A DNA stretch of 54,564 bases from an uncultured Clostridia bacterium (GTDB taxonomy: Bacteria > Bacillota > Clostridia > Oscillospirales > UBA644): the NCBI GenBank assembly GCA_944382895.1, contig CALWNV010000003.1:1-54564 (forward strand), in the 5' to 3' direction. The position numbers were made by a program, and so were the translations under genes. The notes below the pieces were generated by a model. That model made no database searches. It was not told the DNA's origin and saw only the letters and a program-made list of their open reading frames with translations. Of the stretch, positions 4,450-48,801 are shown in pieces (position 1 is the first letter of the stretch; each line of letters starts with the position of its first letter).

Positions 4450-4450
4450 A

Positions 4451-5332: not shown

Positions 5333-5333
5333 A

Positions 5334-36535: not shown

Positions 36536-36993
36536 TGTTTAGAAGACCTCAACTTTTCAAGAATTCTGCGAAGTTCCGTTATCTCCTCCGGGGTAAGTGT
36601 CTCAAAAGTTTCTTTTTCCACCTGTTCAAAAGTCCGGCGAATCTTATCCGCGAGAGCTTTACCGCTTTCCGTCAAAAATATTCTGAACTGTCTCGCATCG
36701 CTTTCATGAGGCTCACGCAAGATATATCCGGAATCCTCCATCTTTTGAATAGTCACACTAACGGAAGAGGGTTTGAAAAACATTTTTTCGGCAAGCTCAC
36801 ATTGCGAAAGACCCTCATGGCGCGAAATTTCCGTAAGAACAGGACCAAAAGAATGCGGGATCCCTATTTTATCAAGCTTTTCCCTCGCATCACAACCAAA
36901 AAGATGGAAAACGACCCTTATAAGATGACTCAGCGGGACATCGTCATTCTCACTTATAAAGGGACATTCCGGGACCTTGTCATTATGTTTCAA
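36532..36993 (-). CDS. MarR-family transcriptional regulator
   Basis: LSQCELAEKM..KPSSVS..IQKME..GYI.R....DAR...I.LTESG; first gene of the ABC operon. Confidence 0.9.
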   Translation of the reverse strand: MKHNDKVPECPFISENDDVPLSHLIRVVFHLFGCDAREKLDKIGIPHSFGPVLTEISRHEGLSQCELAEKMFFKPSSVSVTIQKMEDSGYILREPHESDARQFRIFLTESGKALADKIRRTFEQVEKETFETLTPEEITELRRILEKLRSSKQ

Positions 36994-37012
36994 AACACTA
37001 CCTCCTTTATTT

Positions 37013-37030
37013 TAGTTAGGTAACTAACTA
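37013..37030. promoter_or_regulatory. Probable MarR operator
   Basis: TAGTTAG-GTAA-CTAACTA, a perfect 7-bp inverted repeat between an extended -10 (TGTTATAAT, 37042-37050 minus strand) and the marR RBS. Confidence 0.7.
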
Positions 37031-37216
37031 TATTGCACTATATTATAACACCATATATAGACTTTTTTTCAACAATCAGGTAAAATATTTGCAAAATTTA
37101 GGCACCATTTATAAAGAATCACCTTTATATACACCATATATCAAAACAACTTCTATATTGTCCGAAAACCATATAGAATCCACATTTTATATTGTTCTTA
37201 AAAATTAAAATAAATT

Positions 37217-38101
37217 TCAAAATGCACAGCAAATATCAGAAAACGAAATATCATACCCGGCTGCACAGGCTTTTTTAACCGTTTTGGCAAAAGGATAAGC
37301 AATACCGGAAAAGCCCATATCAAGAGCTTTTTCTTCCAAGACCTCCGAGTAATATCCGGACGGACGCGCGCAACCGAGATAAAAAGAAGAACCGGGAAGT
37401 TTTTTCACCGCTGATTCAAAAAAAGACAAAACATCCTCAAGAGGCGGCGGCGAAGTTCTACTCATTTTTGTGCCGGACAACGGCTTAAGCACAACCAAAA
37501 CAAGTTTTTCGGGAGAAAACTCATAAACAATGTCAAGCGCAGCATATTCACCTTTTATTTTCCCGTAATCTAAACCGACTACTATATGAGGCGAACAACT
37601 GAGTCCGATTGTTTTCATACATTCAAGTCTTTCCGCATAATCTTCCGCTCCGGCATCTATGCCAAAAATATTTTTCACCGTTTCCCTGCTGCCGACAACA
37701 TCAAAAAAAACTGTTGAAACACCGCTCTCCTTAAGTTTATACAAAGTTTGAAAAGAAGGAAAACCGCAATGCACCGCAACTTTTATATATTTGCTTACTC
37801 TGCTTATAGATTCACAATAAGGAAGCAATTCCACTTCACCCGATATATTACATCCGCCGCTCAGCAAAATACCTTCGCAGCCTTCATCAATCATCTTCAT
37901 GCAAAGCGTCTCAAAATTTTGGGGATCAGAGCCGTCGAGCATATTTTTCAACATCTTCCCACCACAGTGAGGACAATCAAGTGCGCAGATATTTCCACTT
38001 ATACTCACCGAACGAAATTTTTTGCGGTTATTAAAATGAAACTCGTTTTCATAAAACTTTGCTCCCGGGGTAAAAAACGTTATCTTTTTCATTATCTGCA
38101 C
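37217..38101 (-). CDS. lipS1: LipS1-type radical SAM sulfur insertase (alternative lipoyl synthase subunit)
   Basis: CALDCPHC, LSGGC, PHIVVGL, GCARP and C-terminal CC, which are the motifs I recall for LipS1; adjacent to the lipoate ligase. Confidence 0.8.
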   Translation of the reverse strand: MQIMKKITFFTPGAKFYENEFHFNNRKKFRSVSISGNICALDCPHCGGKMLKNMLDGSDPQNFETLCMKMIDEGCEGILLSGGCNISGEVELLPYCESISRVSKYIKVAVHCGFPSFQTLYKLKESGVSTVFFDVVGSRETVKNIFGIDAGAEDYAERLECMKTIGLSCSPHIVVGLDYGKIKGEYAALDIVYEFSPEKLVLVVLKPLSGTKMSRTSPPPLEDVLSFFESAVKKLPGSSFYLGCARPSGYYSEVLEEKALDMGFSGIAYPFAKTVKKACAAGYDISFSDICCAF

Positions 38102-38109
38102 CCGACAAA

Positions 38110-39162
38110 TTACTGTTCACCGACAGCCATACGAACGGCATATACAAAATCCGACGGAATCACACCGGGTATTGCCCATTCCCTATTTTCAAAAAATTCT
38201 GTCGTCTTTTTCTCTATATCACAAATTCTGCAGTTTTTAAGTACACTCTCATAATCCTGAATAAGACGAGAAGGATACACAAAAAAATCCCCGTTTATAA
38301 CAGCCTGTGAAATATATGCTCTACCGTCCGTTATGATATAAACCCTTATACATCCTCCCGCCGCTTTGTAAACAGCACTACGGTATTGTTTTTTACTCTC
38401 ACGCGCATTACGGTATATCCACTCTTCACTTTCGAATTCTATCATATTCTTACTGTAAGACTCTTTTTCATACAAACTAAGTTCGCCGCACACATAATCA
38501 AACCCGAGGACGGAAGAAAACTCATTTATCAAAGCCTTTTTGAGACTAACAATATCCGGTACAGGAGCACACTCTCTCGAAAGCCATGTCATTCGTTCCC
38601 TAAAAGCGGATACCGCTTTATCTTTAAGTTTTTCAATGGGTGTATTAAGAGTTTTAAGCATCATCTCTATATCAAAATCGATAAGCAGGGAGCCGTGATA
38701 TAAAAACGTATCCCCTTCTTCTGTACCCCCGCTCCCGCTGACTTTACGTCCGTTTATTTCAATATCATTATGAGGACGGAACTCAGCAGCTATACCAAAA
38801 CTTTTGAGAGCATTTACACAACCCCCGCAAAGAGTTCGGTACATATTTTCAACCGTACTGCCCCGCAGGGCTGACTTCGGAGCAACCAGTTCCCATCCGA
38901 GAGCCCCCCTGTCCATTAAAATCGCGCCCCCTCCGGTGATACGCCTGTTGACCGGGATATCGTGTTCTTTGCAAAAATCAATTTTAACCTCATCTTCCAC
39001 ATTCTGATTATATCCCACAAGAATCACAGGCCGATCAAAAAACATAAATCTCAAGGTCGGAGGGGATTTTCTCTCATTAACGGCAGAGAGAATCGTTTTA
39101 TCTAAAGCCATATTTTCCGCAGCACCTATATATCCGGTATCTACAACACGCCATTTTTCCAT
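38110..39162 (-). CDS. lplA: Lipoate/octanoate:protein ligase, fused catalytic and accessory domains
   Basis: NMALD, PPTLRF, RRITGGGAI, NDIEINGRKVSG, HGSLL; C-terminal KAAGG...GDFF accessory domain. Confidence 0.9.
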   Translation of the reverse strand: MEKWRVVDTGYIGAAENMALDKTILSAVNERKSPPTLRFMFFDRPVILVGYNQNVEDEVKIDFCKEHDIPVNRRITGGGAILMDRGALGWELVAPKSALRGSTVENMYRTLCGGCVNALKSFGIAAEFRPHNDIEINGRKVSGSGGTEEGDTFLYHGSLLIDFDIEMMLKTLNTPIEKLKDKAVSAFRERMTWLSRECAPVPDIVSLKKALINEFSSVLGFDYVCGELSLYEKESYSKNMIEFESEEWIYRNARESKKQYRSAVYKAAGGCIRVYIITDGRAYISQAVINGDFFVYPSRLIQDYESVLKNCRICDIEKKTTEFFENREWAIPGVIPSDFVYAVRMAVGEQ

Positions 39163-39189
39163 ATAATCTTCCTTTTAAGAATTTTTTAT

Positions 39190-40206
39190 TCAGTACTTTA
39201 CAAGCTCTTTTTTTATTAGCAAAATATCCTCTGTATCAGGCGCAAACGGAAAATTTCGTATTTCCTCAGAAGGACGTTCGTTTCCAAACGGCCTGTTACA
39301 TGCAGCGCATTTTTCATCGCGTCCGGTACATCCAGATGTCCGGAACGGATATCCGCTTTCGACCGCTTCATTCATAACTGCATCGGAAACCCCGTATCCG
39401 GTGATCTTTCCGTTATGAAAAGTCATTTTATCCGCAGATGAATAGCCGTTATTTATAAGCCAACGGGCAAGCTGGACTCTTCGGTATTGCTCAACAGGCG
39501 GTTGTTTGCGCATACTTTCCCCACTTCCTCTTTCAGGAAAAAAGGAAAATAAATGTGTAGGAGCTCCGTATTCTTTCCATACATGATCAATCATCTTTAT
39601 CATTTCTTCCTCGGTTTCCCCCAAACCGACTATAAAATGGACACCTGCGTTACCTTTTCCGAAAACTTCTGCGGCATCTTTAAGACAGGAAAGATATTTA
39701 TCCCATCTGTGCGGCCCGTGTACGTTCTCGCCGCGGAATTTATCAAAAAGAACAGGAGTCGCTGCGTCTATCGCAATCCCGGATTTATCCGCGCCGGCGG
39801 CTTTCATTTTCATCATATCTTCTTTTTTTATAATTGTCGGGGACAATAAAACGCTCACGGGAAGTTTTGTTTTTTCTTTGATCTCCGTTATAATCGGCAA
39901 TATATCCGCCACACAGTCAGGATGTGTTATCATGGAAACACAAACTCTTTCAATATCGGAACAATTCGCAGCGGCATCCAATACTTCATCAAGTTTATAT
40001 ATAGGCCACGCCACACGGATAAATGTATCTGATTTTTCGCGCGAACGTGAAAGTCCGCAATAAGAGCAATTTGCTTTGCACCCTCCCTCGCAAAGCATAA
40101 GAAGATTAAGACAATGCAGTTTAGCGCCGCGGAAAAACAATCCGGGTTTCAACCCGACAGTCATTGCCGCAGCCATACTTATCTGAACAAATTCCGGGCT
40201 TGTCAT
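39190..40206 (-). CDS. lipS2: LipS2-type radical SAM sulfur insertase (alternative lipoyl synthase subunit)
   Basis: CKANCSYC, HFIVGLGETE, HLFSFFP, and C-terminal TSGC....CAACNRP (variant of TxGCPxCNRP). Start moved to ATG 40206 by RBS. Confidence 0.8.
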   Translation of the reverse strand: MTSPEFVQISMAAAMTVGLKPGLFFRGAKLHCLNLLMLCEGGCKANCSYCGLSRSREKSDTFIRVAWPIYKLDEVLDAAANCSDIERVCVSMITHPDCVADILPIITEIKEKTKLPVSVLLSPTIIKKEDMMKMKAAGADKSGIAIDAATPVLFDKFRGENVHGPHRWDKYLSCLKDAAEVFGKGNAGVHFIVGLGETEEEMIKMIDHVWKEYGAPTHLFSFFPERGSGESMRKQPPVEQYRRVQLARWLINNGYSSADKMTFHNGKITGYGVSDAVMNEAVESGYPFRTSGCTGRDEKCAACNRPFGNERPSEEIRNFPFAPDTEDILLIKKELVKY

Positions 40207-40222
40207 AACATGATATCCTTTC

Positions 40223-40258
40223 AAAAAATTCCGGGCGGCCGGCGCGCCGTCCACCCGG
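40223..40258 (-). terminator. GC-rich hairpin with T-tract inside the operon
   Basis: Minus strand CCGGGTGGACGG-CGCG-CCGGCCGCCCGG followed by AATTTTTT. Confidence 0.6.
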
Positions 40259-40271
40259 TAACTTATCATAA

Positions 40272-42206
40272 TCAGTGTCTCACATATTCTGTATGCAATA
40301 ACTCATGAGAAAGATGAGAACACGGCTTTCCGAGAAAATCTTCATAAATTTTCTTTATTTCAGGGTTCTCGTGCGATTTCCGTATCTCATGTTCATGATC
40401 GTCACGGTCAAGACCCTCTGTACGTTTTTTAGCTTTAACAGCGTTAGTAGTAAGGATCTGACCTCCTCCCCCGACACAACCTCCGGGACAGCTCATTATT
40501 TCTATAAAATGATATTTTGAGAATTCACCGCCGTTTATAATATCCTCGCATATCTTTCTGGCATTGCCAAGCCCGTATGCAACGGCGACCTTAAGTTCAC
40601 CGGCTTTTGTAGGCACGGTAGCTGTTTTTATTCCATCATATGTTCCCAACACACGTAAATCCATATCTTCCAAAGGTTTCTGCTCCACTTCTTCATATGC
40701 CGTACGCAAGGCCGCGGTCATAACTCCTCCTGTCCTACCGAAAATAGTCGCCGCACCTGTATAAGAAGACAACAGCGGATCAGGCGAACCCTCTTCCATA
40801 GCCGCTAAATCTATACCCAAAAGCTTAAACATCTTTGCGCATTCACGCATAGTAAGAACCGCGTCAACATCAGGATATTTGCCGTCGCCGTTCACGACTG
40901 AGGCATCTTTAAGCTCTTCACGCTTACATTCGTATTTTTTCGCCGTACACGGCATAACCGAAACCACAAACATCTTTTCCGGCTTGACATCACAGTTTCT
41001 CGCGCCATATGTTTTAGCGACAGCCCCGAACATCTGTTGAGGACTTTTAGCCGAAGATAAATTCGGGATAAGCTGAGGATAATATTTTTCCACATAATTC
41101 ACCCATGCCGGACAACATGAAGTAAACTGAGGGAACACTCCTCCGTTTTTAATACGACCGAGAAATTCGGTTCCTTCCTCCATAATTGTAAGATCCGCTG
41201 AAAAGTTGGTATCCCATACTCTGTCAAATCCCGCGGCACGAAAAGCGCTGTAAAGTTTTGCGGCAACATTTTCTCCGGGTTCCATACCAAACTGTTCGCC
41301 TATACCGGTTCTTACCGAAGGCGCGAATTGTACAACAGTAAACACTTCAGGGTCTTTAAGCGCGGCAATAACTGTTTCTGTATTATCCACTTCGCTCATC
41401 GCTCCGACAGGTCGTGAAAACGCGCAGTTTTCACATTTTGCAAGCGTCTTGACCATAGCGACCGTTTTATCCTGAAAACCAAGGGGACACGCCATTATGC
41501 ATTGTCCGCAACGCACACACCTGTCGCTGTCCATATCGACACCGAGATCACTTAAATGTATCGCTTCAATAGACTGGACCCTACAAGCCTCTACGCAACT
41601 TCCGCAACGTATACATTTATTGGGATAATAGTTTATCGACGGTTCTGTAGTTTTTGTAGGCAAACGCCTCTCTTTACGTTCCTGAAGGTCTACATGACCT
41701 CCGGCAGCAGCTTCACACGCAACAAATTCCTGCGCACATTGGATAAGAGGACATTCGGTACCGCGAAAATCAGGATCGTCACAAACAGGACATTTCTTCT
41801 TGATTTCGAGTTTGCCTAATTCTTTTATCTGAGAAGAAAACTCATCCATGACTTTTGCAAATTTTTCTCCCTCAGATGCCGATATCCATTCAAGGCGTAA
41901 TCTGCGGCGGTCAATACCGAGTTCATCAAGAAGAGGCTGGAACATTTCATATCTTGCAAGTGTTTTGAAGTTTCCGTTAGTGTAATGACAGTCAGACGGG
42001 ATATGGCAACCGGCAATCAGAACTCCGTCTGCCCCCTCTGCAAACGCTTTAAGAACAAACGAAGGTTCCACTCTTCCTGAACACATAACTCTGACAGCAC
42101 GCGCCGTAATATCGTGACGTATACGCGCGGTCCCGGCAAGATCGGCGCCCGCATACGAGCACCAGTTACACAAAAATTCAACTATCTTTGGTTTATATTC
42201 ACTCAT
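40272..42206 (-). CDS. MvhD-[FeFe]-hydrogenase fusion protein
   Basis: N-terminal MvhD domain (FLCNWCSY, RVMCSGRV, GCH...DCHY, RLEWISASE); two ferredoxin-type Cys motifs; intact H-cluster motifs FTSCCPAW, MPCTAKKYE, EIMSCPGGCVGGGGQ; C-terminal SHEN...LLHT. Start ATG 42206 by RBS. Confidence 0.93.
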   Translation of the reverse strand: MSEYKPKIVEFLCNWCSYAGADLAGTARIRHDITARAVRVMCSGRVEPSFVLKAFAEGADGVLIAGCHIPSDCHYTNGNFKTLARYEMFQPLLDELGIDRRRLRLEWISASEGEKFAKVMDEFSSQIKELGKLEIKKKCPVCDDPDFRGTECPLIQCAQEFVACEAAAGGHVDLQERKERRLPTKTTEPSINYYPNKCIRCGSCVEACRVQSIEAIHLSDLGVDMDSDRCVRCGQCIMACPLGFQDKTVAMVKTLAKCENCAFSRPVGAMSEVDNTETVIAALKDPEVFTVVQFAPSVRTGIGEQFGMEPGENVAAKLYSAFRAAGFDRVWDTNFSADLTIMEEGTEFLGRIKNGGVFPQFTSCCPAWVNYVEKYYPQLIPNLSSAKSPQQMFGAVAKTYGARNCDVKPEKMFVVSVMPCTAKKYECKREELKDASVVNGDGKYPDVDAVLTMRECAKMFKLLGIDLAAMEEGSPDPLLSSYTGAATIFGRTGGVMTAALRTAYEEVEQKPLEDMDLRVLGTYDGIKTATVPTKAGELKVAVAYGLGNARKICEDIINGGEFSKYHFIEIMSCPGGCVGGGGQILTTNAVKAKKRTEGLDRDDHEHEIRKSHENPEIKKIYEDFLGKPCSHLSHELLHTEYVRH

Positions 42207-42219
42207 ATCCAACTCCTCC

Positions 42220-44175
42220 TCAATCTCTCAAAAGTCCTTCAAGCTCGGCAAATATCTGCTCCGAGGAGAAGTGTCCCTGATTTATAGCTCCCGCAGGACA
42301 TGCGGCCGCACATGTACCGCAGCCGCGGCACTTAGTACTTTCAATACGCATGATTTTCGCGGCAGCGTCAAATTCAAGAGCCATATACGGACAAAGTCTT
42401 TCACACAAACGGCATCCCTTACACATATCAGGATTTATGGAAACAACCGTGGGTTCAAGTTTTACTTTGCCGATATTGAGGAAACGTATGACATCTCCCG
42501 CACATCCTTTAGCCTGACACACCGTATCGGGTATGTCTTTAGGTCCCTGCGCGCATCCAGCAGCATAAATACCGGCAGTTGGTGTCTCAAGAGGATTAAG
42601 TTTGGGATGCGCTTCCATAAAGAATCCGTCTTTTGTACGTGAAACATGCATCATCTCGGCAAGAGCGTCTGTATCCTCAGAAGGCTCAAGCCCTACGGCA
42701 AGGACTACCATATCCGCCTCAAGTTCGACTGTGGCGCCCATCAAAGTATCCTCTGCTTTAAGAAGGAGCCTATCATTTTCACTTTTTACGATTTCCGACA
42801 CTTTACCTCTTATAAAATGCACGCCCTCGCTTTGGATACGGTTATAAAACTCCTCATATCCTTTGCCTGCAGCACGTATATCCATATAAAAATTATATAC
42901 TTCCGCTCCAGTCTTTTCTCTTGCGAGATGCGCGTGTTTCAAGGAATACATACAACAGGCTTTTGAACAATACTCATTTGTATTTTTATCACGACTGCCT
43001 ACACAATGTATAAAAGCAATCGTCTTCGGCTTCTCGCCTTTCGATGTGACAATATGTCCCCCGGTCGGACCTGAAGCATTAGTCATTCTTTCATACTGCA
43101 TAGAGTCGATGACATCCGGATAAATCCCGAACCCATATTTGACAGTACGTGAGGCGTCAAAAATCTTAAACCCTGTAGCAAGGATAATCGCGCCTACTTT
43201 TATTTTTACGGTCTCATCTTTCAGATTGAAATCTATACAGCCCCTGTCACAGGCTTTTACGCAAGCCTGTGTACATCTGCCGTTTTTAAGATACAAACAA
43301 TTTACAGGATCTATAACAGCTTTAAGCGGAACTGCCTGAGGAAACGGTATATATGCCGCACCCCTGTTGGAAAGTCCGTAGTTGAACTCGTCCGGGATAC
43401 GGTCTTTCATAACACAGGCTTCAACACATTTTTTGCAACCGGTACAATCAGGTGTTGTATACCGTGTGTGTTTGATGACAGTCACAGTATAATTCCCGAC
43501 AGAACCCTCAACGGAAACTACTTCCGAATTCGTCATCAGGTCAATATTAGGTTCTCTCGAAACATCAACCATTTTGGGCATGAGTATACATGCCGAGCAG
43601 TCAAGGGTGGGAAAAGTCTTATCAAGCTGGGCCATAACACCTCCTATTGTCGGTTTTTTTTCAACAACATAAGTCTGATAACCCGATCTCGCAACAGTCA
43701 GCGCAGCCTCAATGCCGGCAACTCCCCCGCCTATAACAAGACATTTTTTCGTTATTGGTATCTCCTGAGTCTCTATCCGCTCATGGTGAGAAACTCTCGC
43801 AACCGCCGCACGAACAAGATCTTTTGCTTTTTGAGTGGCCGTCGGTATATCGGTACAGACCCATGAAACATGCTCCCGTATATTGGCCATCTGCATATAA
43901 TATGGATTAAGACCTGCTTCCTCCACAACTTTTCTAAAAGTAGGTTCATGCATCCTGGGCGAGCATGAAGCGACAACCACTCTGTTCAGTTTATAATTTT
44001 CTATATCTTCTTTTATTATTTTCTGTCCCGCGTCAGAACATGTATACATGTTATCTCTCGCGACAACTACATTATCAAGACCGCCCGCATATGCCGAAAC
44101 TTCAGGACAATCCACTGTTCCGCCTATGTTCGAACCGCAGTGACAAACATAAACTCCTATTCTCAATTCTTCCAT
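42220..44175 (-). CDS. hdrA: Heterodisulfide reductase subunit A (FAD, Fe-S)
   Basis: RIGVYVCHCG, ASCSPRMHE, ANIRE, IGGGVAG, KTFPTLDCSAC, CVGSRD, YCSKACC, GCAQGPKDI, C-terminal ferredoxin domain. Confidence 0.95.
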   Translation of the reverse strand: MEELRIGVYVCHCGSNIGGTVDCPEVSAYAGGLDNVVVARDNMYTCSDAGQKIIKEDIENYKLNRVVVASCSPRMHEPTFRKVVEEAGLNPYYMQMANIREHVSWVCTDIPTATQKAKDLVRAAVARVSHHERIETQEIPITKKCLVIGGGVAGIEAALTVARSGYQTYVVEKKPTIGGVMAQLDKTFPTLDCSACILMPKMVDVSREPNIDLMTNSEVVSVEGSVGNYTVTVIKHTRYTTPDCTGCKKCVEACVMKDRIPDEFNYGLSNRGAAYIPFPQAVPLKAVIDPVNCLYLKNGRCTQACVKACDRGCIDFNLKDETVKIKVGAIILATGFKIFDASRTVKYGFGIYPDVIDSMQYERMTNASGPTGGHIVTSKGEKPKTIAFIHCVGSRDKNTNEYCSKACCMYSLKHAHLAREKTGAEVYNFYMDIRAAGKGYEEFYNRIQSEGVHFIRGKVSEIVKSENDRLLLKAEDTLMGATVELEADMVVLAVGLEPSEDTDALAEMMHVSRTKDGFFMEAHPKLNPLETPTAGIYAAGCAQGPKDIPDTVCQAKGCAGDVIRFLNIGKVKLEPTVVSINPDMCKGCRLCERLCPYMALEFDAAAKIMRIESTKCRGCGTCAAACPAGAINQGHFSSEQIFAELEGLLRD

Positions 44176-44178
44176 CAG

Positions 44179-45381
44179 TTATCCCTCCAGCCTTTCGGCG
44201 AGAAATTCCGCAAGATCATAAACCTTTATACGGGCCCGGATACTGCGCGTGCCTTTCTGAAGAGAGCGTTTACATTGCTGACATGTCGTCACAATAGCCG
44301 AAGCACCCGTAGCAACTGCCTCAGACGCGCGTCCGGCAGAAATATTTTCGGCAAGCGAAGCATTCTGCATTTCTATATTTCCCCCACCGCCACAGCATTT
44401 ACTCTCATTTTTATTAAATCGCATTTCCTTTATGCGCGCACCGGTAAGAGAAATCAGCTGACGAGGTTCATCAAAAATTTTCTCCCCTTTACGTCCGAGA
44501 TCGCAGGGATCATGGTATGTAACCGTTTCATCTCCGTGTTTGAATTTCAAACGCCCTTCCTGAGCAAGCCGTAACAAATATTGGGAATAGTGAAGAATTT
44601 CGATATAATTGAATCCGGGAACATATTTCGTGTATACTTCCCTGAAAACATACAAGCATGTCGGACATGACATAACCACGGTTTCCGCACCTTTTTTTAC
44701 AAGTTCCGCATACGTATGTTCAGCATATTCCCTTAACGAATCCTCTCCCGCGCCGGAGCCGAGAAGAGGATAACCGCAACACCATTCTCCCTCACCTAAA
44801 AAACCCAGATCAATCCCGGCTTTTATAAGCATAAAAGAAAGCGACTGCGGTATTTTGTATGCCTGAGGAAACAACGCTGAAACACAGCCCGTATAGTAAA
44901 TCACTTTTGCTTTATCTTTTTTTAAGGCAGCTTCAACTTCCGACTTTCCTTCTCCCATATTGGAAAACCAAAGAGATCTGTTTTTCTGATCATCTCCGTT
45001 GATATTGCGTTTTTCCATGGCAGAAGCGATATTCGACTGATTTTCGGGAACACCGTTTTTACAGGTATACGCCTCGCGAAGCCTGAGAATTATCCTTGTA
45101 AGGGGGATCCCTCTCGGACACCGTGATTCGCAAAGTCCGCATGTTGTACAGTTCCATTCATTTTCCGAACCAAAGATCTCATCAGATCTGCCCATTTGCA
45201 GTAAACGCCAAAACTGACGGTGTGAATACCTGTTGCTCTCATTTCCGGGACACGTTGCAGAACAACTTCCGCATTGTATACAGGTATATATTTTCTCTCC
45301 GCCTTCTACATCTCGTATTATCCGGTCAAGATTTCTCTGTTCTTCTGTAATTTCGCTTATCCTGTAATGCAAAAATATCAC
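44179..45381 (-). CDS. HdrD-like protein (HdrC-type 2x[4Fe-4S] plus two CCG domains), next to hdrA
   Basis: CIQCGSCSATCP, CTTCGLCESRCP; GC..CCG..CPTC and DPC..CCG..CQQC. Start may be TTG 45372. Confidence 0.88.
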   Translation of the reverse strand: MIFLHYRISEITEEQRNLDRIIRDVEGGEKIYTCIQCGSCSATCPGNESNRYSHRQFWRLLQMGRSDEIFGSENEWNCTTCGLCESRCPRGIPLTRIILRLREAYTCKNGVPENQSNIASAMEKRNINGDDQKNRSLWFSNMGEGKSEVEAALKKDKAKVIYYTGCVSALFPQAYKIPQSLSFMLIKAGIDLGFLGEGEWCCGYPLLGSGAGEDSLREYAEHTYAELVKKGAETVVMSCPTCLYVFREVYTKYVPGFNYIEILHYSQYLLRLAQEGRLKFKHGDETVTYHDPCDLGRKGEKIFDEPRQLISLTGARIKEMRFNKNESKCCGGGGNIEMQNASLAENISAGRASEAVATGASAIVTTCQQCKRSLQKGTRSIRARIKVYDLAEFLAERLEG

Positions 45382-45385
45382 CCCG

Positions 45386-45814
45386 TCACTTTATATTGTT
45401 TTTTATCTCTTCTTCTTCGACAAATTTCGCGATTTCCTCCGCGTTATCAGTCGTCATGAATCCGTCTATATCCGACATATTGTCCGGCTTTATCTTTATA
45501 ACCCATCCGTCATCATACGGGTTTTCATTGAGCAAATACGGAAAATCTCCTAACTCTGCATTAGCCTCAATTATTTCACCGTTGACCGGAGCTTTGAGAC
45601 GCCCTACCCATTTCCCGCTCTCAATAGAAGCAAAAGGTTGACCCTCTTCTATTCTTCTGCCGGCGGCCGGGACTTCAACAAAAATGATTTCGCCCGCCAT
45701 TTGCTGAAACATGTCGGTAACGCCCATTATCAGAATATCTCCGTCTTTTTTCACCCATCCGTGATATTTATCGAACCGAAGTCCCTCGGGAAATTCATAC
45801 TTACCTGATTTCAT
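45386..45814 (-). CDS. gcvH: GcvH-like lipoyl-carrier protein
   Basis: H.WV, GVTD, IESGKWVG (lipoyl-Lys), APVNGEIIEAN, LNENPYDDGW. Start ATG 45814 after GGAGG. Confidence 0.9.
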   Translation of the reverse strand: MKSGKYEFPEGLRFDKYHGWVKKDGDILIMGVTDMFQQMAGEIIFVEVPAAGRRIEEGQPFASIESGKWVGRLKAPVNGEIIEANAELGDFPYLLNENPYDDGWVIKIKPDNMSDIDGFMTTDNAEEIAKFVEEEEIKNNIK

Positions 45815-45837
45815 TTTTATATACCTCCAAAAATAAT

Positions 45838-46986
45838 TTACTCCTCGCAAAGTTTGAACAATAACTCAGTTATATCAGCAACCTTTATACGTGTTCTTGT
45901 AGTTCTTGCCCCGGATTGCAAAGTCCTCCGACATTGTTGACAGCAGGAAACAATAGTTGTCGCACCGGTTTCAGCCGCTTGGGAAATTCTCAAAGCGGAT
46001 ACTTTACCCGAAAGAACAGGATCATTACTTTCCAGATTCCCGCCGCCGCCGCAGCAAACCGCGTCAACACGGTTTTTACGCATTTCCTTAAAAGTTATAC
46101 CGGGAATCGACGTAAGAATTTTTCTCGGGGATTCAAATATTCCGCTTTTACGTCCCAAATCGCATGGGTCATGGTATGTAACAGTTTCGTTGAGCTCTCT
46201 GGGATGAAGTTTCCCGTTTTCACAAAGTTCAGCCAAAAGCTCAACACCATGGATAACCTTTAAACCAGTTTCTTCTCCTAAAAGCTCGGGGTAATGATGT
46301 TTCCACATATAATAACACGAAGGGCATGTAGTCACTATCTTGTCTATTCCCAACTCTTTCACACATTTAACATTTTCACGCGCGACACTTTTAGCTTCCG
46401 ATTCCATCCCTCCTATAAAAAGAGGATATCCGCAGCATAGTTCATTTTCGCCCAAAACGGTAAAATCTGTGCCTGAAATACAAAGGAGCCCGACAAAACT
46501 CTGAACAACCGCATAGGAAGAGGGATAAAGAGATGAAACACAACCGGGAAGATAAAGATATTCGGCTTTCGCATTTATTTTAACATTGTATTTCTCCGAG
46601 AGATTCGCCAGCCATAACAGACGGTTTTTCTGCTCGTCACCGTTTACATTACCTGATTCAGTAATGTTTTTACGCATCCGTTCGCCTACGGCGGTCAGGC
46701 CGTACTTTTCATTGAGCGCGCAACGAAGTCTTTCTGCGATTTCAGGGATATGGACTCCGGGAGGACAATGTTCGCTGCAGGATCCGCATAATAAACATTG
46801 ATTTATTCTCGTTCGGAAAAGATCGCTTATATCATCCCCGTTCATGACTGCTTTGGCAAGCTGCATCCTTCCGCGCGCATTATATCCCTCATGTCTCGTT
46901 GCCTGATATGTTGGACAATATGCCTGACAATAACCGCATCTGACACATGTTTCTATTTCCTTAAGGATTTTTTCATCGATTTTCAT
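45838..46986 (-). CDS. GlcF/HdrD-like Fe-S protein (2x[4Fe-4S] plus two CCG domains), next to the dehydrogenase
   Basis: CVRCGYCQAYCP, ARGR, CLLCGSCSEHCP; GC..CCG..CPSC and DPC..CCG..CQQC; ATGA overlap with the dehydrogenase. Confidence 0.88.
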   Translation of the reverse strand: MKIDEKILKEIETCVRCGYCQAYCPTYQATRHEGYNARGRMQLAKAVMNGDDISDLFRTRINQCLLCGSCSEHCPPGVHIPEIAERLRCALNEKYGLTAVGERMRKNITESGNVNGDEQKNRLLWLANLSEKYNVKINAKAEYLYLPGCVSSLYPSSYAVVQSFVGLLCISGTDFTVLGENELCCGYPLFIGGMESEAKSVARENVKCVKELGIDKIVTTCPSCYYMWKHHYPELLGEETGLKVIHGVELLAELCENGKLHPRELNETVTYHDPCDLGRKSGIFESPRKILTSIPGITFKEMRKNRVDAVCCGGGGNLESNDPVLSGKVSALRISQAAETGATTIVSCCQQCRRTLQSGARTTRTRIKVADITELLFKLCEE

Positions 46987-48386
46987 ATCACGTCACCACC
47001 GTCAAAAGGAATAAGTTTGCCGGGATTCAATATATTATCCGGATCCAAGGCTTTTTTGATCTTACGCATAAGTCTTAACCCGCTGTCTCCGAATTCATCC
47101 TTCATATAATTTATTTTGGCGACGCCTATACCGTGTTCTCCGGATAAAGTCCCTCCGAGAGACAACGCCGCCGCAAAAATATCTTTTATCGCAGCCTCTA
47201 CCTTCTCCGACTCACCGTCACGAGAAAAATCAGCAAGGATAGTCGGATGAAGATTCCCGTCTCCTGCATGCCCGAAAGTTCCTATCGGGATTCCGTATTT
47301 CTCCGAAATGGCACTTACGGCTCTGAGCATTTCGGAGACAGCGGAACGCGGAACAGTAGCATCCTCTAAAATGGTAGAAGAAGCACGTTTTATAAGCGAC
47401 GGAAGAGCCGCGCGCCGGGCAGCCCACAAACTATCACGCTCCGTATCTGTATCCGCTCTCTCCGTCCTTTCCGCACCGAACTCTTTGCATATATCGACAA
47501 TCCTTTCCGCATCCCTTACGACTTCACCTTCAAATCCGTCTACTTCAATCAATAAAACAGCCTCTGCATCAACCGGAAGTCCTGCCCCTGTCGTCTCCTC
47601 AACACAACGGATCGTAGCGTTATCCATTATCTCAAGAGTCGCAGGAATAATATGACTGCGTATGATTGCGCTTATAGCTTTCCCGGCAGATTCAAGGTCC
47701 ATAAATACCGCCATCATGCTCCTGCGTGATTCGGGCAAAGGAATAAGACGAACCGTAGCCTCGGTTATTATACCAAGAGTTCCCTCAGAAGCCACAAAAA
47801 GCTGTGTCATTGAATATCCGGTAACATTTTTTACGGTTTTCCCTCCGAATCTTGAAACGTCGCCATCAGCCGAAACAACCTCGACGCCCATTACATAGTC
47901 TCTTGTAACGCCATATTTTACACCGCGAAGCCCTCCCGCACACTCAGCAATCGAGCCTCCCATGGTCGCACAATGAACCGTCCCGGGGTCAGGCGCATAT
48001 AAAAGACCGTGTTTTTTTGCTTCATTTATAAGGTCCTCAATAACTACTCCCGCTTGTACGGTAGCAGTAAGATTATCCTCATCTATCTCAATTATCTTGT
48101 TCATCCGGCACATCGAAATAACGATTCCACCGCCTACGGGGACCGTCCCTCCGCTTAAATTAGTCCCCGCCCCTCTGGGAAATAACGGAATCTTCTCTTC
48201 CGCCGCAATTTTTACGATTTCAGCAATCTGCTCCGTGGTCTCAGGCAGAACAACAGCAAGCGGAATATACGCATCCACATTCATTGTCGCATCAAAAGAA
48301 TAGCAAACAAGATCTTCATATTCCGTAAGTACGTTCTCCGCGCCCAATATCGCTTCAAGACGTTCTTTAAGCAGTTCAACAGTCAT
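46983..48386 (-). CDS. FAD-linked 2-hydroxyacid dehydrogenase (GlcD/LctD/D-lactate dehydrogenase family)
   Basis: PRGAGTNLSGG, PDPG, GGLRGVKYG, SEGTLG, EDATVP, GHAGDGNLHP, SGEHGIG, LNPGK. Start moved to ATG 48386. Confidence 0.92.
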   Translation of the reverse strand: MTVELLKERLEAILGAENVLTEYEDLVCYSFDATMNVDAYIPLAVVLPETTEQIAEIVKIAAEEKIPLFPRGAGTNLSGGTVPVGGGIVISMCRMNKIIEIDEDNLTATVQAGVVIEDLINEAKKHGLLYAPDPGTVHCATMGGSIAECAGGLRGVKYGVTRDYVMGVEVVSADGDVSRFGGKTVKNVTGYSMTQLFVASEGTLGIITEATVRLIPLPESRRSMMAVFMDLESAGKAISAIIRSHIIPATLEIMDNATIRCVEETTGAGLPVDAEAVLLIEVDGFEGEVVRDAERIVDICKEFGAERTERADTDTERDSLWAARRAALPSLIKRASSTILEDATVPRSAVSEMLRAVSAISEKYGIPIGTFGHAGDGNLHPTILADFSRDGESEKVEAAIKDIFAAALSLGGTLSGEHGIGVAKINYMKDEFGDSGLRLMRKIKKALDPDNILNPGKLIPFDGGDVI

Positions 48387-48442
48387 AAATCCCCCGCCTT
48401 TCATTTAATAAATCAGTATAAATTTATCGAAATATTCCATAT

Positions 48443-48488
48443 TTGATATATTGATATATATTTTACAACATATTTCATCCTGTGTCAA
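48443..48488 (-). promoter_or_regulatory. Sigma-A promoter of the dehydrogenase-Hdr-hydrogenase operon with a tandem repeat at the start site
   Basis: TTGACA (48483-48488)-17 bp-TAAAAT (48460-48465); direct repeat TTGATATA-TTGATATA at 48443-48458. Confidence 0.65.
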
Positions 48489-48709
48489 CACTTACCGAAA
48501 ACATTTTATGTTTTTCGCGTACAAAAACGTGATCGCTTTTTTATAGAAAATATATAAAACCTCTGGAATATATTTATGCAGCATCGGTTCAAAAAAACCC
48601 CTGTCTAAGCAAATATAATCATCTTCTGAAGAAAGGATTTTCAAATAAAAAGAAATTCTGTTTTTTGATTTTTTGATATAATCAAAATTCAAACAAATAA
48701 TTTCCGAAT

Positions 48710-48754
48710 AAAAATGCCCTGATTCAGGAATTTATCATAAATCAGGACATTTTT
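48710..48754 (-). terminator. Terminator after the second histidine kinase
   Basis: AAAATGCCCTGATT...AATCAGGACATTTT; the single mismatch becomes a G-U pair in the minus-strand RNA. Confidence 0.7.
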
Positions 48755-48801
48755 CTCAATATTCGATTTTTATCTTTCCGTATCTGTATCTCCAATCAAA
48801 A

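Follow-up and report, generated by a model that had tools for sequence, protein, structure and literature searches.

The window analysed here, a stretch of 54,564 nucleotides from an uncultured Clostridia bacterium that run records place in animal gut and faeces metagenomes, contains an operon in which genes for a 2-hydroxyacid dehydrogenase, a lipoyl carrier, Hdr-like proteins and an [FeFe]-hydrogenase follow one another. The locus raises the question of whether the lipoyl group links the two redox enzymes and, if so, in which direction electrons flow. The operon appears to wire a lactate-type dehydrogenase to an H2-making enzyme via an electron-splitting flavoprotein, with protein-bound lipoic acid as the go-between. 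We assign this lipoyl-coupled system as a whole a probability of roughly 0.55, the direction being its weaker part.

Operon architecture and cofactor sites

Nine minus-strand open reading frames (ORFs) lie in a row at 37217-48386 (-), tightly packed with gaps of -4 to +27 nt. The ORF list of the window and the Pfam and NCBIfam calls bear out the co-oriented genes of the initial annotation, with the same families for all nine, and cofactor motifs are intact throughout. Families and coordinates stand with two amendments: the start of GcvH is most likely 45814, giving 142 aa as in database copies, and the GlcD ORF itself runs to 48404, its start at 48386 being backed by a ribosome-binding site. 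The single promoter proposed ahead of the operon corresponds to TTGACA-17 nt-TAAAAT (48460..48488, -), the top-ranked promoter-like site within 36400-49000. It is near-consensus, with 11/12 positions matched, and is a consensus match only; the overall count of promoter-like sites is not above that of shuffled controls. A terminator-like hairpin (48729-48717) closes the histidine-kinase gene upstream, and the operon is flanked by a two-component system and a MarR/ABC transporter.

The first gene encodes a putative LctD/GlcD-type FAD-dependent D-2-hydroxyacid dehydrogenase (467 aa; 46983..48386, -) with Pfam FAD_binding_4 and FAD-oxidase_C domains. It scores 527 bits against TIGR00387 (glcD), under the 568-bit cut-off, 332 bits against a 'glycolate oxidase' (9qgz_A) and, end to end, 323 bits against LctD of the Ldh-EtfAB complex (7qh2_C). 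CCG protein 1 (382 aa; 45838..46986, -) overlaps the GlcD stop by 4 nt, and in CCG protein 2 (397-400 aa; 44179..45381, -) an HdrC-like N-terminus is followed by an HdrB-like double CCG domain. Both are HdrD-like, each combining two CCG domains with a 2x[4Fe-4S] domain (Pfam Fer4_8 and 2x CCG, with two HdrB-type CCG motifs, in CCG protein 1). GlcF matches CCG protein 1 better (96.6 versus 52.7 bits), whereas the HdrC model TIGR03290 matches CCG protein 2 better (70 versus 32 bits); CCG protein 2 also matches PDB chains of HdrC (1e-15) and HdrB (3e-5). From sequence we propose that CCG protein 1 is the partner of the dehydrogenase and CCG protein 2 that of HdrA. The cysteines of CCG protein 1 (14/17/20/24, 64/67/70/74, 149/184/185/221/224 and 275/311/312/349/352) are kept in 4/4 orthologues, and those of CCG protein 2 (34/37/40/44, 78/81/84/88, 166/201/202/239/242 and 293/329/330/367/370) are invariant among 38 sequences.

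HdrA (651 aa; 42220..44175, -) is of the full-length bifurcating type. It reaches 846 bits against NF040770, covering model positions 1-640 of 777, and 30/33 of its cysteines are kept in 10/10 orthologues, both ferredoxin domains included. The adjoining gene encodes an MvhD domain fused to a group A [FeFe]-hydrogenase (644-646 aa; 40272..42212, -; Pfam FlpD at 10-133, Fe_hyd_lg_C and Fe_hyd_SSU; 444 bits against TIGR02512, over the 406-bit cut-off). The N-terminus of the fusion matches HdrA2 model positions 644-776, exactly where the operon HdrA ends. MvhD cysteines 15/18/44/69/75 and H-cluster cysteines 366/367/422/575/579 are kept in 14/14, and the motifs TSCCPxW, MPCxxKxxE and ExMxCxxGCxxGGGQ are invariant among 20 sequences.

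The lipoyl carrier and its association with CCG and Hdr genes

The GcvH-like carrier (142 aa; 45386..45814, -) belongs to a K-W-x-G subfamily and matches PF01597 (125 bits) and NF002270 (130 bits, over the 117-bit cut-off). The lysine of IESGKWVGRL aligns with the lipoyl-lysine of pea H-protein (1dxm) and is invariant among 41 sequences. Three lipoylation genes follow the hydrogenase: a LipS2-type radical SAM lipoyl synthase subunit (359 aa; 39190..40269, -), a lipoate/octanoate-protein ligase, Lpl (350 aa; 38110..39162, -), and a LipS1-type subunit (294 aa; 37217..38101, -). These three, like GlcD, all score under their NCBIfam cut-offs: LipS2 and LipS1 match whole models (NF053743, 1.1e-68, 232 bits, cut-off 270; NF053742, 1.3e-63, 215 bits, cut-off 230), and Lpl reaches 168 bits against TIGR00545 (under 280) and 171 bits against PF21948, with a catalytic domain and a C-terminal LplB-like domain (LplB match at residues 265-347). 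C64x3C68x2C71 and Cys 53/110/314/324 of LipS2, and C39x3C43x2C46 and Cys 75/244/291/292 of LipS1, are each kept in 8/8. The order LipS2-Lpl-LipS1 differs from the Lpl-LipS2-LipS1 of 10/10 other loci showing both genes.

The operon's GcvH is the only one found in a whole-genome search. In the same 92.8%-complete genome GcvP is absent, as is GcvT, the sole GCV_T match being MnmE. An E1 (alpha-beta fusion)/E2/E3 (Lpd) set lies on contig C16, and a canonical LipA with an adjoining second LplA-like ligase on C6. Because glycine cleavage partners are missing, and because other contigs encode a separate LipA-LplA pair and E1/E2/E3, the lipoylation genes of the operon appear to be reserved for its own GcvH. 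The window had been described as free of gcvP, gcvT, E3, tusA and similar genes; this holds for the families examined, across 29 window ORFs and whole-genome searches for GcvP, GCV_T, E2, Lpd and TusA, the E2 and Lpd genes and the TusA domain (contig C25) lying outside it.

Conservation was assessed in 18 other loci with a short-form fused hydrogenase (L002, L116-L131, L135), counting for each gene only loci whose contig reaches its position. HdrA is present in 14/14, CCG protein 2 in 9/9, GcvH in 5/5, CCG protein 1 and GlcD in 3/3, Lpl in 15/15, LipS2 in 10/12 and LipS1 in 7/9; the only missing neighbours are LipS2/LipS1, in 2 of the 18 loci. The cluster is thus kept as a unit, as the neighbourhood check of the initial annotation asked, and its recurrence shows that the gene set is not due to chance.

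A phylum sample of 400 genomes plus the window's own gave 62 GcvH matches outside that genome. Those with K-W-[VA]-G after the lipoyl-lysine form a KW class of 28 genes in 28 genomes and 12 families (L152 included). A CCG-domain gene lies in the fetched stretch of 3.5-20 kb for 25/28 KW-type GcvHs and 0/34 of the other, canonical ones, a contrast that rests on about 12 families rather than 28 independent events, since the sampled genomes are related. It is within 1.5 kb for 23/28, and HdrA occurs in the stretch for 14/28 versus 0/34. By these counts the distinct K-W-x-G subfamily of GcvH has a strong phylum-wide link to CCG/Hdr genes. Together with the absence of GcvP and GcvT, the second lipoylation system elsewhere and the preserved unit, this agrees with the earlier assignment of a dedicated lipoyl-GcvH to CCG/Hdr rather than to glycine cleavage.

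It is probable, in our judgement, that lipoyl-GcvH is the substrate of the CCG sites. We consider it rather improbable that it does not shuttle between the CCG proteins, with their sites using another thiol/disulfide (low-molecular-weight or protein) or only passing Fe-S electrons. The role of GcvH would then be accessory: an NAD(H) link via Lpd, a lipoyl relay for E2, or regulatory. CCG-domain proteins such as GlcF also serve enzymes for which no disulfide substrate is known. The own genome (G000) encodes E2 and E3 (Lpd), and at another locus, L117, an Lpd gene adjoins the cluster divergently, so lipoyl-GcvH may provide a link to NAD. Bacillus-type pathways also use GcvH as a lipoyl relay (PMC10332631). 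However, the E2 of G000 is already served by LipA and the LplA-like gene. A genome search of a relative with the full cluster (G001, completeness not established) found no GcvP, GcvT, E2, LipA or true Lpd (best 149 bits, under 409), which would leave a relay or Lpd role without a target there. KW-type GcvHs, which track CCG genes, have Lpd beside them in 0/28 cases in the phylum sample. The GcvH tree places the 35 non-KW rows in one starred group (100/98) and the four hydrogenase-type GcvHs in another of their own (100/98); a starred clade for each Hdr architecture suggests long co-inheritance, which also speaks against an accessory role.

Proposed electron pathway and its direction

We infer that the nine genes specify a soluble redox machine that supplies its own maturation and connects H2, via flavin-based confurcation/bifurcation at HdrA, with a D-2-hydroxyacid/2-oxoacid couple, which is most likely of the lactate type. 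Lpl would load octanoate or lipoate onto the conserved lysine of the carrier, and LipS1/LipS2 would insert the two sulfurs. The LctD-like flavoenzyme would oxidize the hydroxyacid and hand two electrons on, by way of the clusters in CCG protein 1, to the HdrB-type site of that protein, which would reduce the lipoyl disulfide on GcvH. Re-oxidation of dihydrolipoyl-GcvH would take place at the corresponding site of CCG protein 2, the HdrC-HdrB fusion that would dock on HdrA. There, FAD would merge these higher-potential electrons with low-potential electrons of reduced ferredoxin, supplied by 2-oxoacid:ferredoxin oxidoreductases (OFORs) acting on the oxoacid product, and electrons would leave through the MvhD [2Fe-2S] domain and the Fe-S chain to the H-cluster. 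The net reaction would be hydroxyacid + reduced ferredoxin + protons to oxoacid + oxidized ferredoxin + 2 H2.

The initial annotation preferred the opposite course, H2 oxidation driving 2-oxoacid reduction, and listed H2 production only as possible. If lipoyl-GcvH is the CCG substrate, we favour the H2-evolving, confurcating direction, with modest confidence, because of gene context in relatives. One locus (L123) includes a LarAH10 2-hydroxyacid racemase (565 bits, over 540) and an SSF symporter within the cluster, and IorA (741, over 651), IorB, a phosphate butyryltransferase (Ptb)-like gene and butyrate kinase (Buk; 504, over 222) after it. In a variant (L157) a lactate permease (372 bits) is accompanied by GlcD, CCG protein 1, a LUD-Fer4-CCG protein, GcvH, CCG protein 2, HdrA and MvhD, with an Fe-S/Fe-S/FAD-NAD module (Flx-like, NAD(P)H) in place of the hydrogenase; L002 has an LldR-like regulator. 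This context suggests that the relatives take up and oxidize 2-hydroxyacids, oxidize 2-oxoacids with production of reduced ferredoxin and carry out substrate-level phosphorylation. The match of the dehydrogenase to LctD of the confurcating Ldh-EtfAB complex also counts for H2 evolution, as do IorAB (contig C35) and another OFOR alpha subunit (C88) in the own genome, which by sequence are ferredoxin reducers.

The reverse course, to which we give a clear minority share, uses the same components: H2 would be oxidized with bifurcation at HdrA to ferredoxin and lipoyl-GcvH, and dihydrolipoyl-GcvH would reduce a 2-oxoacid via CCG protein 1 and the dehydrogenase. Reduced ferredoxin would feed Rnf for energy conservation, so that the oxoacid would in effect be respired with H2; RnfD occurs in G000 and G001 alike. 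The couples lactate/pyruvate and lipoamide lie at about -190 and -290 mV. With these values, and with the -325 mV quoted for lipoic acid in PMC8760232, every step of the H2-consuming direction is downhill at standard potentials, and the thermodynamic argument originally made for it stands. Transfer from hydroxyacid to lipoyl is calculated to be uphill by 100-135 mV, so the oxidative direction would work only if the ratio of substrate to product is high or the potential of lipoate is shifted in its bound state. Neighbouring window genes include no racemase, permease or OFOR beside the operon, and tblastn found nothing above 60 bits in the own genome for the racemase, symporter, Ptb or Buk of L123. 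MvhADG-HdrABC, the closest structural relative, runs in the H2-oxidizing direction (PMC5861303). On the other hand, the racemase and symporter, the lactate permease and LUD-domain protein, and the LldR-like regulators (L157, L002) are signatures of catabolic hydroxyacid utilization. If the hydroxyacid were an end product, a racemase would serve no obvious purpose, and IorAB-Ptb-Buk directly downstream in L123 would consume the 2-oxoacid oxidatively. At low H2 pressure, moreover, standard potentials leave almost no calculated driving force for bifurcation to ferredoxin and lipoate (about -290 mV). The system is probably near equilibrium and reversible.

Relation to known lipoyl and Hdr systems

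The initial annotation knew of no characterization of this combination. Our literature search found none for the nine-gene Hdr-hydrogenase-GcvH system, but the claim was overstated with respect to the idea itself, which appears as speculation for other systems: lipoyl-GcvH has been suggested as an Hdr disulfide in Culexarchaeia (PMC9723716), and for acetogen MetVF such a role was weighed but thought unlikely (PMC8760232).

The operon shares a common logic with sulfur-oxidizing sHdr-LbpA systems, in which a GcvH-like lipoyl protein and Lpl/LipS1/LipS2 occur in an hdr-like cluster (PMC6067878 and PMC10332631). That it is such a system, or a variant handling sulfane sulfur on the lipoate arm, is nevertheless very improbable. 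In this operon the Hdr proteins are paired with a hydrogenase and a hydroxyacid dehydrogenase, and run records have the organism in animal gut and faeces metagenomes. The operon GcvH contains no cysteine, whereas LbpA proteins have two that are strictly conserved. Sulfur transferases are said to accompany sHdr-LbpA systems in every case (10.1101/2023.12.18.572138), but the window contains no TusA, and the only TusA domain of the genome is fused to a larger oxidoreductase.

HdrA separates the two systems further. Residues 1-651 align with residues 1-652 of the 654-residue HdrA in the MvhADG-HdrABC structure (5odc_A, 724 bits), while the short sHdrA (6tjr_A), of a type of roughly 350 aa, spans only residues 324-561. 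The operon HdrA thus resembles, end to end, the bifurcating HdrA of MvhADG-HdrABC and is unlike the short sHdrA.

Nine-gene operon and its protein components

The stretch 37217-48404 holds nine successive open reading frames on the minus strand, all of which could be assigned to families with Pfam and NCBIfam. In order of transcription, they encode a GlcD/LctD-type FAD-linked oxidase (GlcD), a first CCG protein (CCG1), GcvH, a second CCG protein (CCG2), HdrA, a fusion of MvhD (FlpD) with a group A [FeFe]-hydrogenase, LipS2, a lipoate-protein ligase (Lpl) and LipS1. Intergenic spacing ranges from -4 to +27 nt, and the top promoter-like match across the region (TTGACA-17-TAAAAT) is found 70-100 nt 5' of the GlcD start at 48386, which has a good ribosome-binding site. 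The ORF listing, family assignments, spacing and promoter-like site confirm the nine-gene operon described in the initial annotation, with small corrections to its gene starts; GcvH probably begins at 45814. The flanking genes are unrelated, with a histidine kinase and a response regulator upstream and MarR and two ABC exporters downstream. Farther away in the window, 2347-5386 encodes a PFL-like glycyl radical enzyme (706 aa) with an adjoining 311-aa ORF that could be its activase, and 6541-8886 encodes a MetH-like B12-dependent methyltransferase.

HdrA has the full-length architecture, with an N-terminal domain, an FAD/TrxR-like core and both the inserted and the C-terminal ferredoxin domain. 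Its residues 1-651 align with residues 1-652 of the 654-residue chain 5odc_A (724 bits), which is HdrA from the crystallized bifurcating MvhADG-HdrABC complex, and 30 of its 33 cysteines are kept in 10/10 orthologues. The short sHdrA of sulfur oxidizers (6tjr_A) matches the core of the window protein only (residues 324-561). The score against the NCBIfam HdrA models stays under their cut-offs (846 < 1100), since these models either carry an MvhD tail or are specific to methanogens. By architecture and cysteine ligands, the protein is predicted to be an HdrA of the bifurcating type. Against the HdrA2 model, which includes a C-terminal MvhD, HdrA matches up to position 640 and the N-terminus of the next gene product covers positions 644-776. 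The MvhD adaptor thus appears, in effect, to have shifted from HdrA to the hydrogenase.

The gene for the MvhD-hydrogenase fusion lies directly 3' of hdrA after a 13-nt gap. Its MvhD/FlpD domain (PF02662, 158 bits) spans residues 10-133, with Cys15, Cys18, Cys44, Cys69 and Cys75, the predicted ligands of a [2Fe-2S] cluster, kept in 14/14 sequences. In the catalytic part, TSCCPxW, MPCxxKxxE and ExMxCxxGCxxGGGQ, which we take to be the L1, L2 and L3 H-cluster motifs of [FeFe]-hydrogenases, are invariant in 20 aligned sequences, and the score against TIGR02512 (444 bits, cut-off 406) is that expected of a group A enzyme.

CCG1 and CCG2 share 37-38% identity and the same build of a 2x[4Fe-4S] domain followed by two CCG domains, with eight ferredoxin-type cysteines and two full five-cysteine CCG motifs each. 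In CCG2, the motifs C166-C201C202-C239xxC242 and C293-C329C330-C367xxC370 are invariant in 38 sequences; both motifs of CCG1 are complete and follow the same pattern in 4/4 orthologues. The spacing Cx31-39CCx35-36CxxC, present twice, presumably provides the ligands of the two noncubane [4Fe-4S] clusters of an HdrB-type CCG site. CCG2 is nearer to HdrC at its N-terminus, and CCG1 is nearer to GlcF (96.6 bits). Pairwise matches of both proteins to acetogen-type HdrB are weak and local, and we therefore claim no close kinship with HdrB beyond the CCG motifs. Judged by sequence, the HdrA, MvhD, hydrogenase and CCG parts all fall within the definitions of their families.

The dehydrogenase combines FAD_binding_4 and FAD-oxidase_C domains and scores 332 bits against a 'glycolate oxidase' chain and 323 bits against LctD, and is thus a predicted VAO-type LctD/D-lactate dehydrogenase by domains and similarity. 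GcvH matches PF01597 with 125 bits and NF002270 with 130 bits (cut-off 117), with a score just below the cut-off of the equivalog TIGR00527 (111 < 115.85). Its lipoyl-lysine aligns with that of the pea H-protein, and the H-protein fold and lipoyl-lysine are thus both present. The two radical SAM proteins of the candidate lipoyl synthase pair, LipS1 (1.3e-63, 215 bits) and LipS2 (1.1e-68, 232 bits), score below the cut-offs of 230 and 270, cover the whole of their models and are the best matches to them; CxxxCxxC and further cysteines are kept in 8/8 sequences, and the Lpl gene lies between the two.

Conservation of the operon and its lipoyl carrier

The short MvhD-hydrogenase fusion comprises about 23 database clusters. 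A first scan of species genomes used the full hydrogenase alignment; among the 80 loci listed, further genes of the nine accompanied the hydrogenase in one case (L002), a figure that is no measure of rarity because the patterns were too generic and the loci listed are part of the total. L002 carries all nine genes at 40-73% identity. A second scan, run on metagenome contigs with an alignment of the fusion-specific linker region only, yielded 20 loci, 17 of them with the short form, which together with L002 gives 18. The three others (L132-L134) encode a long-form MvhD-hydrogenase in another context and were excluded from the synteny counts.

Counting only loci whose contig extends to the gene position, HdrA lies upstream of the fusion in 14/14 and Lpl downstream in 15/15. 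CCG2 is present in 9/9, GcvH in 5/5, and CCG1 together with GlcD in 3/3. LipS2 was found in 10 of 12 loci, a count that excludes L127 with only 310 bp left after Lpl, and LipS1 in 7 of 9. L123 and L131, the two that lack LipS genes, have a more distant ligase (26-28% identity). The initial annotation had named lack of conservation as a unit as a refutation of its own proposal; in view of these counts, the refutation does not apply in the 18 loci as far as their contigs reach. We conclude that the genes of the cluster form a conserved functional unit. The window operon itself occurs with identical flanks on contigs from other public runs, and run records place its DNA in runs from 8 studies, mostly of chicken gut and faeces metagenomes. 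No RNA run is listed among them; three runs labelled 'RNA?' are probably DNA, and their contigs extend beyond both ends of the operon.

Several variations were seen around this common theme. Behind the hydrogenase, the window has the order LipS2-Lpl-LipS1, and 10/10 other loci showing both genes have Lpl-LipS2-LipS1. Among the orthologous Lpl proteins, several have only 249-267 aa and end before the C-terminal domain. Hydrogenases of about 600 aa without MvhD (P0033-P0035, P0039) are 60-63% identical over the catalytic part; their longest contigs match those of the CCG2 orthologues P0195-P0197 and P0201 in size, which suggests variants with a separate MvhD. The long fusion at L134:580-16459 (783 aa) has an extra inserted domain and adjoins HdrA/HdrC/HdrB-MvhD-MvhG-MvhA ([NiFeSe]) genes; the locus also encodes cytochrome c3, a TmcB-like CCG protein and Rnf, and its HdrA is split over two ORFs, possibly at a selenocysteine codon.

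The operon GcvH is the only GcvH in the window's own genome (G000; 1.79 Mb, 92.8% complete). A GDC-P search of this genome and of the genome behind L002 (G001) found no GcvP in either. The sole GCV_T match in G000 is weak and corresponds to MnmE, and G001 has none. Since GcvP and GcvT were found in neither genome, we do not file the protein as a glycine-cleavage H protein: it is a GcvH by fold and fails the functional definition, and a role in glycine cleavage is rejected for G000.

From the window alone, no other lipoate-related genes were suspected. This holds for the 29 window ORFs scanned, and other contigs of G000 do carry such genes: E2, E3 and an 824-aa fused E1 alpha-beta of a 2-oxoacid dehydrogenase complex (contig C16; L082:7990-13238), and canonical LipA with an adjoining LplA-like ligase (contig C6; L137:2695-4313), a split pair that resembles the fused bifunctional family. 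A further weak match to the 2-oxoacid_dh catalytic domain (33 bits, 300-aa ORF) lies on contig C10 (25341-26078; L083). The possibility that the operon is a housekeeping lipoylation cluster placed here by chance is rejected given the conserved synteny and the second LipA/LplA pair. Two lipoylation systems in one small genome, with one of them located in the operon, match what PMC10332631 describes for LbpA maturation in sulfur oxidizers. In the G001 assembly, GcvP, GcvT, E2, LipA and a true Lpd were not found; the cluster GcvH may then be the sole lipoyl protein of that genome. In one orthologous cluster (L117:1-1015, minus strand), a dihydrolipoyl dehydrogenase gene (368 bits, cut by the contig end) lies divergently upstream of GlcD, a hint that the carrier of this organism could be linked to NAD.

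A survey of the class with the LipS1 model returned a true LipS1 in 2 of 399 scored genomes, G000 and G322. In G322 (L114:7605-18183), LipS1, LipS2 and Lpl directly follow a canonical GcvH and RACo within an ACS/CODH (Wood-Ljungdahl) cluster, and on this ground we rejected the locus as a second system of the window type. No LipS1 was found in the 14 genomes of the same order in the class sample. G+C content over the operon core (40001-48000) is 0.44-0.46, compared to about 0.39-0.40 on both flanks. This step and the LipS1 result for the order are compatible with horizontal acquisition of the operon.

The K-W-x-G GcvH subfamily and the direction of the reaction

Around the lipoyl-lysine, the operon GcvH reads IESGKWVGRLKAP, compared to VESVKA.SD in canonical H-proteins. 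We queried 400 evenly sampled genomes from the phylum with this GcvH and obtained 62 matches outside G000 in 57 genomes; the 3.5-20 kb around each match were screened with the nine window proteins and twelve queries from the loci. K-W-[VA]-G follows the lysine in 28 matches (28 genomes, 12 families; KW-type hereafter, L152 included), which are not 28 independent events because the genomes are related, and is missing from 34. A CCG-domain gene accompanies 25 of the 28 KW-type genes, within 1.5 kb in 23 cases, and none of the 34 others; for HdrA, the figures are 14/28 and 0/34. ACS/CODH genes lie in 10 of the 34 other stretches and Lpd in 7 of them, compared to 0/28 KW-type stretches for both. 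In a GcvH tree of 71 rows (HSPs shorter than 100 aa or containing a stop excluded), the 35 non-KW rows fall together in a single well-supported group, and the hydrogenase-type, MetF-type and HdrCBA-Lpl-type proteins each form a supported group of their own.

The KW-type genes (for example L153:9992-10411 and L157:10012-10362) occur in five architectures. Ten loci show GcvH-HdrC-HdrB, followed by HdrA-MvhD and more HdrA-like genes where the stretch allows; in five of these (L152, L153, L156, L164, L171), MetV and MetF precede GcvH. Four loci have the order GcvH-HdrC-HdrB-HdrA(-MvhD)-Lpl-LipT-LipS2, and in five others GcvH stands with lipoylation genes only. Another eight (L160, L172, L174, L180, L181, L189, L208, L210) combine one or two KW-type GcvHs with a VAO-type flavoprotein (25-28% identity to GlcD), a CCG1-like protein (38-44%) and varying sets of Lpl, LipT(-like), LipS2 and LipS1, and have no HdrA. 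A full-length E2-like protein, 30-33% identical to the E2 of G000, is encoded in five of the eight (L160, L174, L181, L208, L210), and none of the eight stretches contains an Lpd match of at least 150 bits. This architecture may serve E3-independent re-oxidation of dihydrolipoate. Finally, L157 encodes a lactate permease, GlcD (51% identity), CCG1 (40%), a LUD-Fer4-CCG protein, GcvH, CCG2 (42%), HdrA (59%), a free-standing MvhD, two Fe-S proteins, an FAD/NAD-binding protein, a GntR regulator and Lpl. It thus contains the core of the window operon and, where the window has the hydrogenase, a pyridine-nucleotide module, which shows that the H2 module is exchangeable.

The proposal that lipoate is the two-electron carrier on the Hdr side, originally made from the window, gains support from these comparisons and is the best available reading, although we infer each mechanistic step. 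Bacillota do not have CoM and CoB. KW-type GcvH could be a general, dedicated 'protein heterodisulfide' of bacterial Hdr/CCG enzymes, with its lipoyl dithiol/disulfide as the long-sought physiological substrate of HdrB-type sites in Bacillota; we give this reading a probability of roughly one in three. KW-type GcvH would then be a hub to which different modules attach: the [FeFe]-hydrogenase in the window, a Flx-like NAD(P)H module and lactate dehydrogenases in L157, the methylene-THF reductase MetFV-HdrCBA-MvhD from acetogen-like genomes in the ten GcvH-HdrC-HdrB loci (MetF/MetV in five), and VAO-type flavoproteins with E2-like proteins in the eight loci without HdrA. If true, this would supply the second substrate so far missing for the MetFV-Hdr complex and would account for the unexplained gcvH of Wood-Ljungdahl clusters. 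The phylum-wide link between KW-type GcvH and Hdr/CCG genes suggests a principle that reaches acetogen methylene-THF reductases.

Gene context also bears on the direction in which the window system runs. In L123, genes for a 2-hydroxyacid racemase of the LarAH10 family and for a sodium:solute symporter separate CCG1 from GcvH, and the cluster continues into IorA, IorB, a phosphate butyryltransferase-like gene and butyrate kinase. In L002, an LldR-like regulator stands ahead of GlcD, and L157 begins with its lactate permease and includes the lactate-utilization (LUD) domain protein. Read together, these contexts suggest a pathway of hydroxyacid catabolism; LarAH10 and IorAB hint at bulkier hydroxyacids in the L123 organism. 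G000 itself has IorAB, another 2-oxoacid:ferredoxin oxidoreductase and Rnf; no NifJ-type PFOR was found there at E<=1e-30. Its RnfD match (contig C20:16242-17216) contains one in-frame TGA, which could reflect a sequencing error, a pseudogene or recoding.

The electron pair of lactate lies at about -190 mV. In the oxidative direction, a 2-hydroxyacid would be imported, racemized to the D form and oxidized; the 2-oxoacid product would in turn be oxidized with ferredoxin, and its acyl-CoA would yield ATP. IorAB or the other oxidoreductase of G000 would supply reduced ferredoxin, whose electron pair HdrA would merge with the pair at about -190 mV to form H2. The initial annotation had preferred the opposite course, in which H2 oxidation drives the reduction of a 2-oxoacid. 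With standard potentials, every step of that course is downhill, and the window operon lacks the catabolic accessory genes of its relatives. With textbook potentials and the -325 mV quoted for lipoic acid in PMC8760232, lipoate reduction by lactate would be uphill by 100-135 mV under standard conditions. By our arithmetic, the oxidative direction requires that hydroxyacid exceed oxoacid roughly a thousand-fold or that the cofactor have an altered potential when bound. However, the racemase, symporter, IorAB and butyrate kinase of L123, the regulator of L002 and the permease and LUD protein of L157 all read as hydroxyacid oxidation, and H2 consumption is probably the reverse of the physiological reaction. 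We therefore treat the system as reversible, given evidence on both sides, with a moderate preference for the hydroxyacid-oxidizing, H2-evolving direction.

Relation to known electron-bifurcating and lipoate-dependent systems

HdrABC-like genes occur widely among bacteria that do not produce CoM-S-S-CoB, and we know of no substrate for the CCG sites of their products. The combination of GlcD, GcvH, HdrA and [FeFe]-hydrogenase is undescribed in the full-text literature searched, outside which subscription journals and supplements lie. A lipoyl-dependent bifurcating enzyme is likewise absent from the accessible parts of two reviews of bifurcating enzymes (including PMC5861303). The window operon is compact and conserved and places a dedicated lipoyl carrier, for which it also supplies maturation genes, between two CCG proteins, which makes for a concrete hypothesis that could be reconstituted with nine proteins. 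If confirmed, the operon would encode a new class of flavin-based confurcating hydrogenase that forms H2 from lactate-type acids and would matter for hydrogen and lactate turnover in animal guts. The role of lipoate would be widened from acyl and aminomethyl carrier to pure electron shuttle. The main interest lies in the K-W-x-G GcvH family, which may reveal the substrate still missing for bacterial Hdr complexes, with the operon as a compact test system.

The maturation genes resemble those of the sHdr-LbpA system with sLpl(AB), LipS1 and LipS2, in which, according to the parts of Cao 2018 and Tanabe 2023 available to us, the genes for a GcvH-like carrier, its own ligase and LipS1/LipS2 lie within an hdr-like cluster. 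As a further likeness, the genome contains a canonical lipoylation system apart from the cluster. In contrast to the sHdr system, the window HdrA is of the full-length bifurcating type, the operon lacks LipT, and its partners are a hydrogenase and a hydroxyacid dehydrogenase. LbpA is described in the accessible text of Cao 2018 as having two strictly conserved cysteines near its N- and C-termini that are absent from GcvH. Compared with this published description, the window GcvH lacks the LbpA hallmark, as it contains no cysteine at all. The window cluster is not classed as a sulfur-oxidizing sHdr system, because the short sHdrA is absent and TusA is found in G000 only on contig C25, outside the window.

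Lipoyl-GcvH has been discussed beside Hdr proteins before. GcvH is encoded next to HdrB/HdrA in the Culexarchaeia Ehe cluster and in acetogen MetFV-HdrCBA-MvhD and Wood-Ljungdahl clusters, according to passages of PMC9723716, PMC8760232 and PMC5039349. In the portion of PMC9723716 consulted, lipoyl-GcvH as the Hdr disulfide was speculated for the Culexarchaeia [NiFe]-hydrogenase/HdrBC cluster. Passages of PMC8760232 note gcvH beside genes for Hdr-type methylene-THF reductase and judge the corresponding scenario for acetogen MetVF 'highly unlikely', and what gcvH does in Wood-Ljungdahl clusters is described in the literature as unclear. Unlike the window operon, these clusters have a [NiFe] hydrogenase or a methylene-THF reductase as partner and no GlcD.

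Glycolate oxidase GlcDEF and the Dld-II-type D-lactate dehydrogenases, which we take to be pairs of GlcD and a CCG iron-sulfur subunit, offer a comparison for the dehydrogenase end. As in the window, an FAD-linked oxidase is followed by a protein with 2x[4Fe-4S] and two CCG domains, which accords with the GlcF similarity of CCG1. The window has neither GlcE nor a membrane or quinone link, and the proposed electron exit is instead the lipoyl carrier. At the other end, FlxABCD-HdrABC, presumably NADH:heterodisulfide-type complexes of anaerobic bacteria, resemble L157 rather than the window: beside HdrA, L157 encodes MvhD followed by a pair of Fe-S proteins and one protein that combines FAD_binding_6, NAD_binding_1 and DHODB_Fe-S_bind, a likeness in domain content only.

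The MvhADG-HdrABC complex of methanogens (5odc) shares with the window the full-length HdrA homology, an MvhD adaptor between hydrogenase and HdrA, and HdrC-like 2x[4Fe-4S] and HdrB-like double CCG motifs. However, the window hydrogenase is a group A [FeFe] enzyme fused to MvhD and not a [NiFe] enzyme, and HdrC and HdrB correspond to one HdrD-like soluble protein that is distant from HdrB (E 3e-5). The window system also includes another CCG protein and a flavin dehydrogenase, and the disulfide would be protein-bound lipoate instead of CoM-S-S-CoB. LctBCD (Ldh-EtfAB), a confurcating lactate dehydrogenase of Acetobacterium woodii that depends on ferredoxin (7qh2), has a dehydrogenase subunit, LctD, homologous from end to end and the same proposed job, in which lactate oxidation becomes feasible by the addition of reduced ferredoxin (reaction as given in a passage of PMC5861303). 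In contrast to LctBCD, the window system would couple through Hdr and a lipoyl carrier instead of EtfAB, with protons (H2) instead of NAD+ as acceptor; the L157 variant with its FAD/NAD module would be closest to it in net reaction. By analogy, the window system would resemble an Mvh-Hdr complex acting on another substrate in its working, and Ldh-Etf in its purpose.
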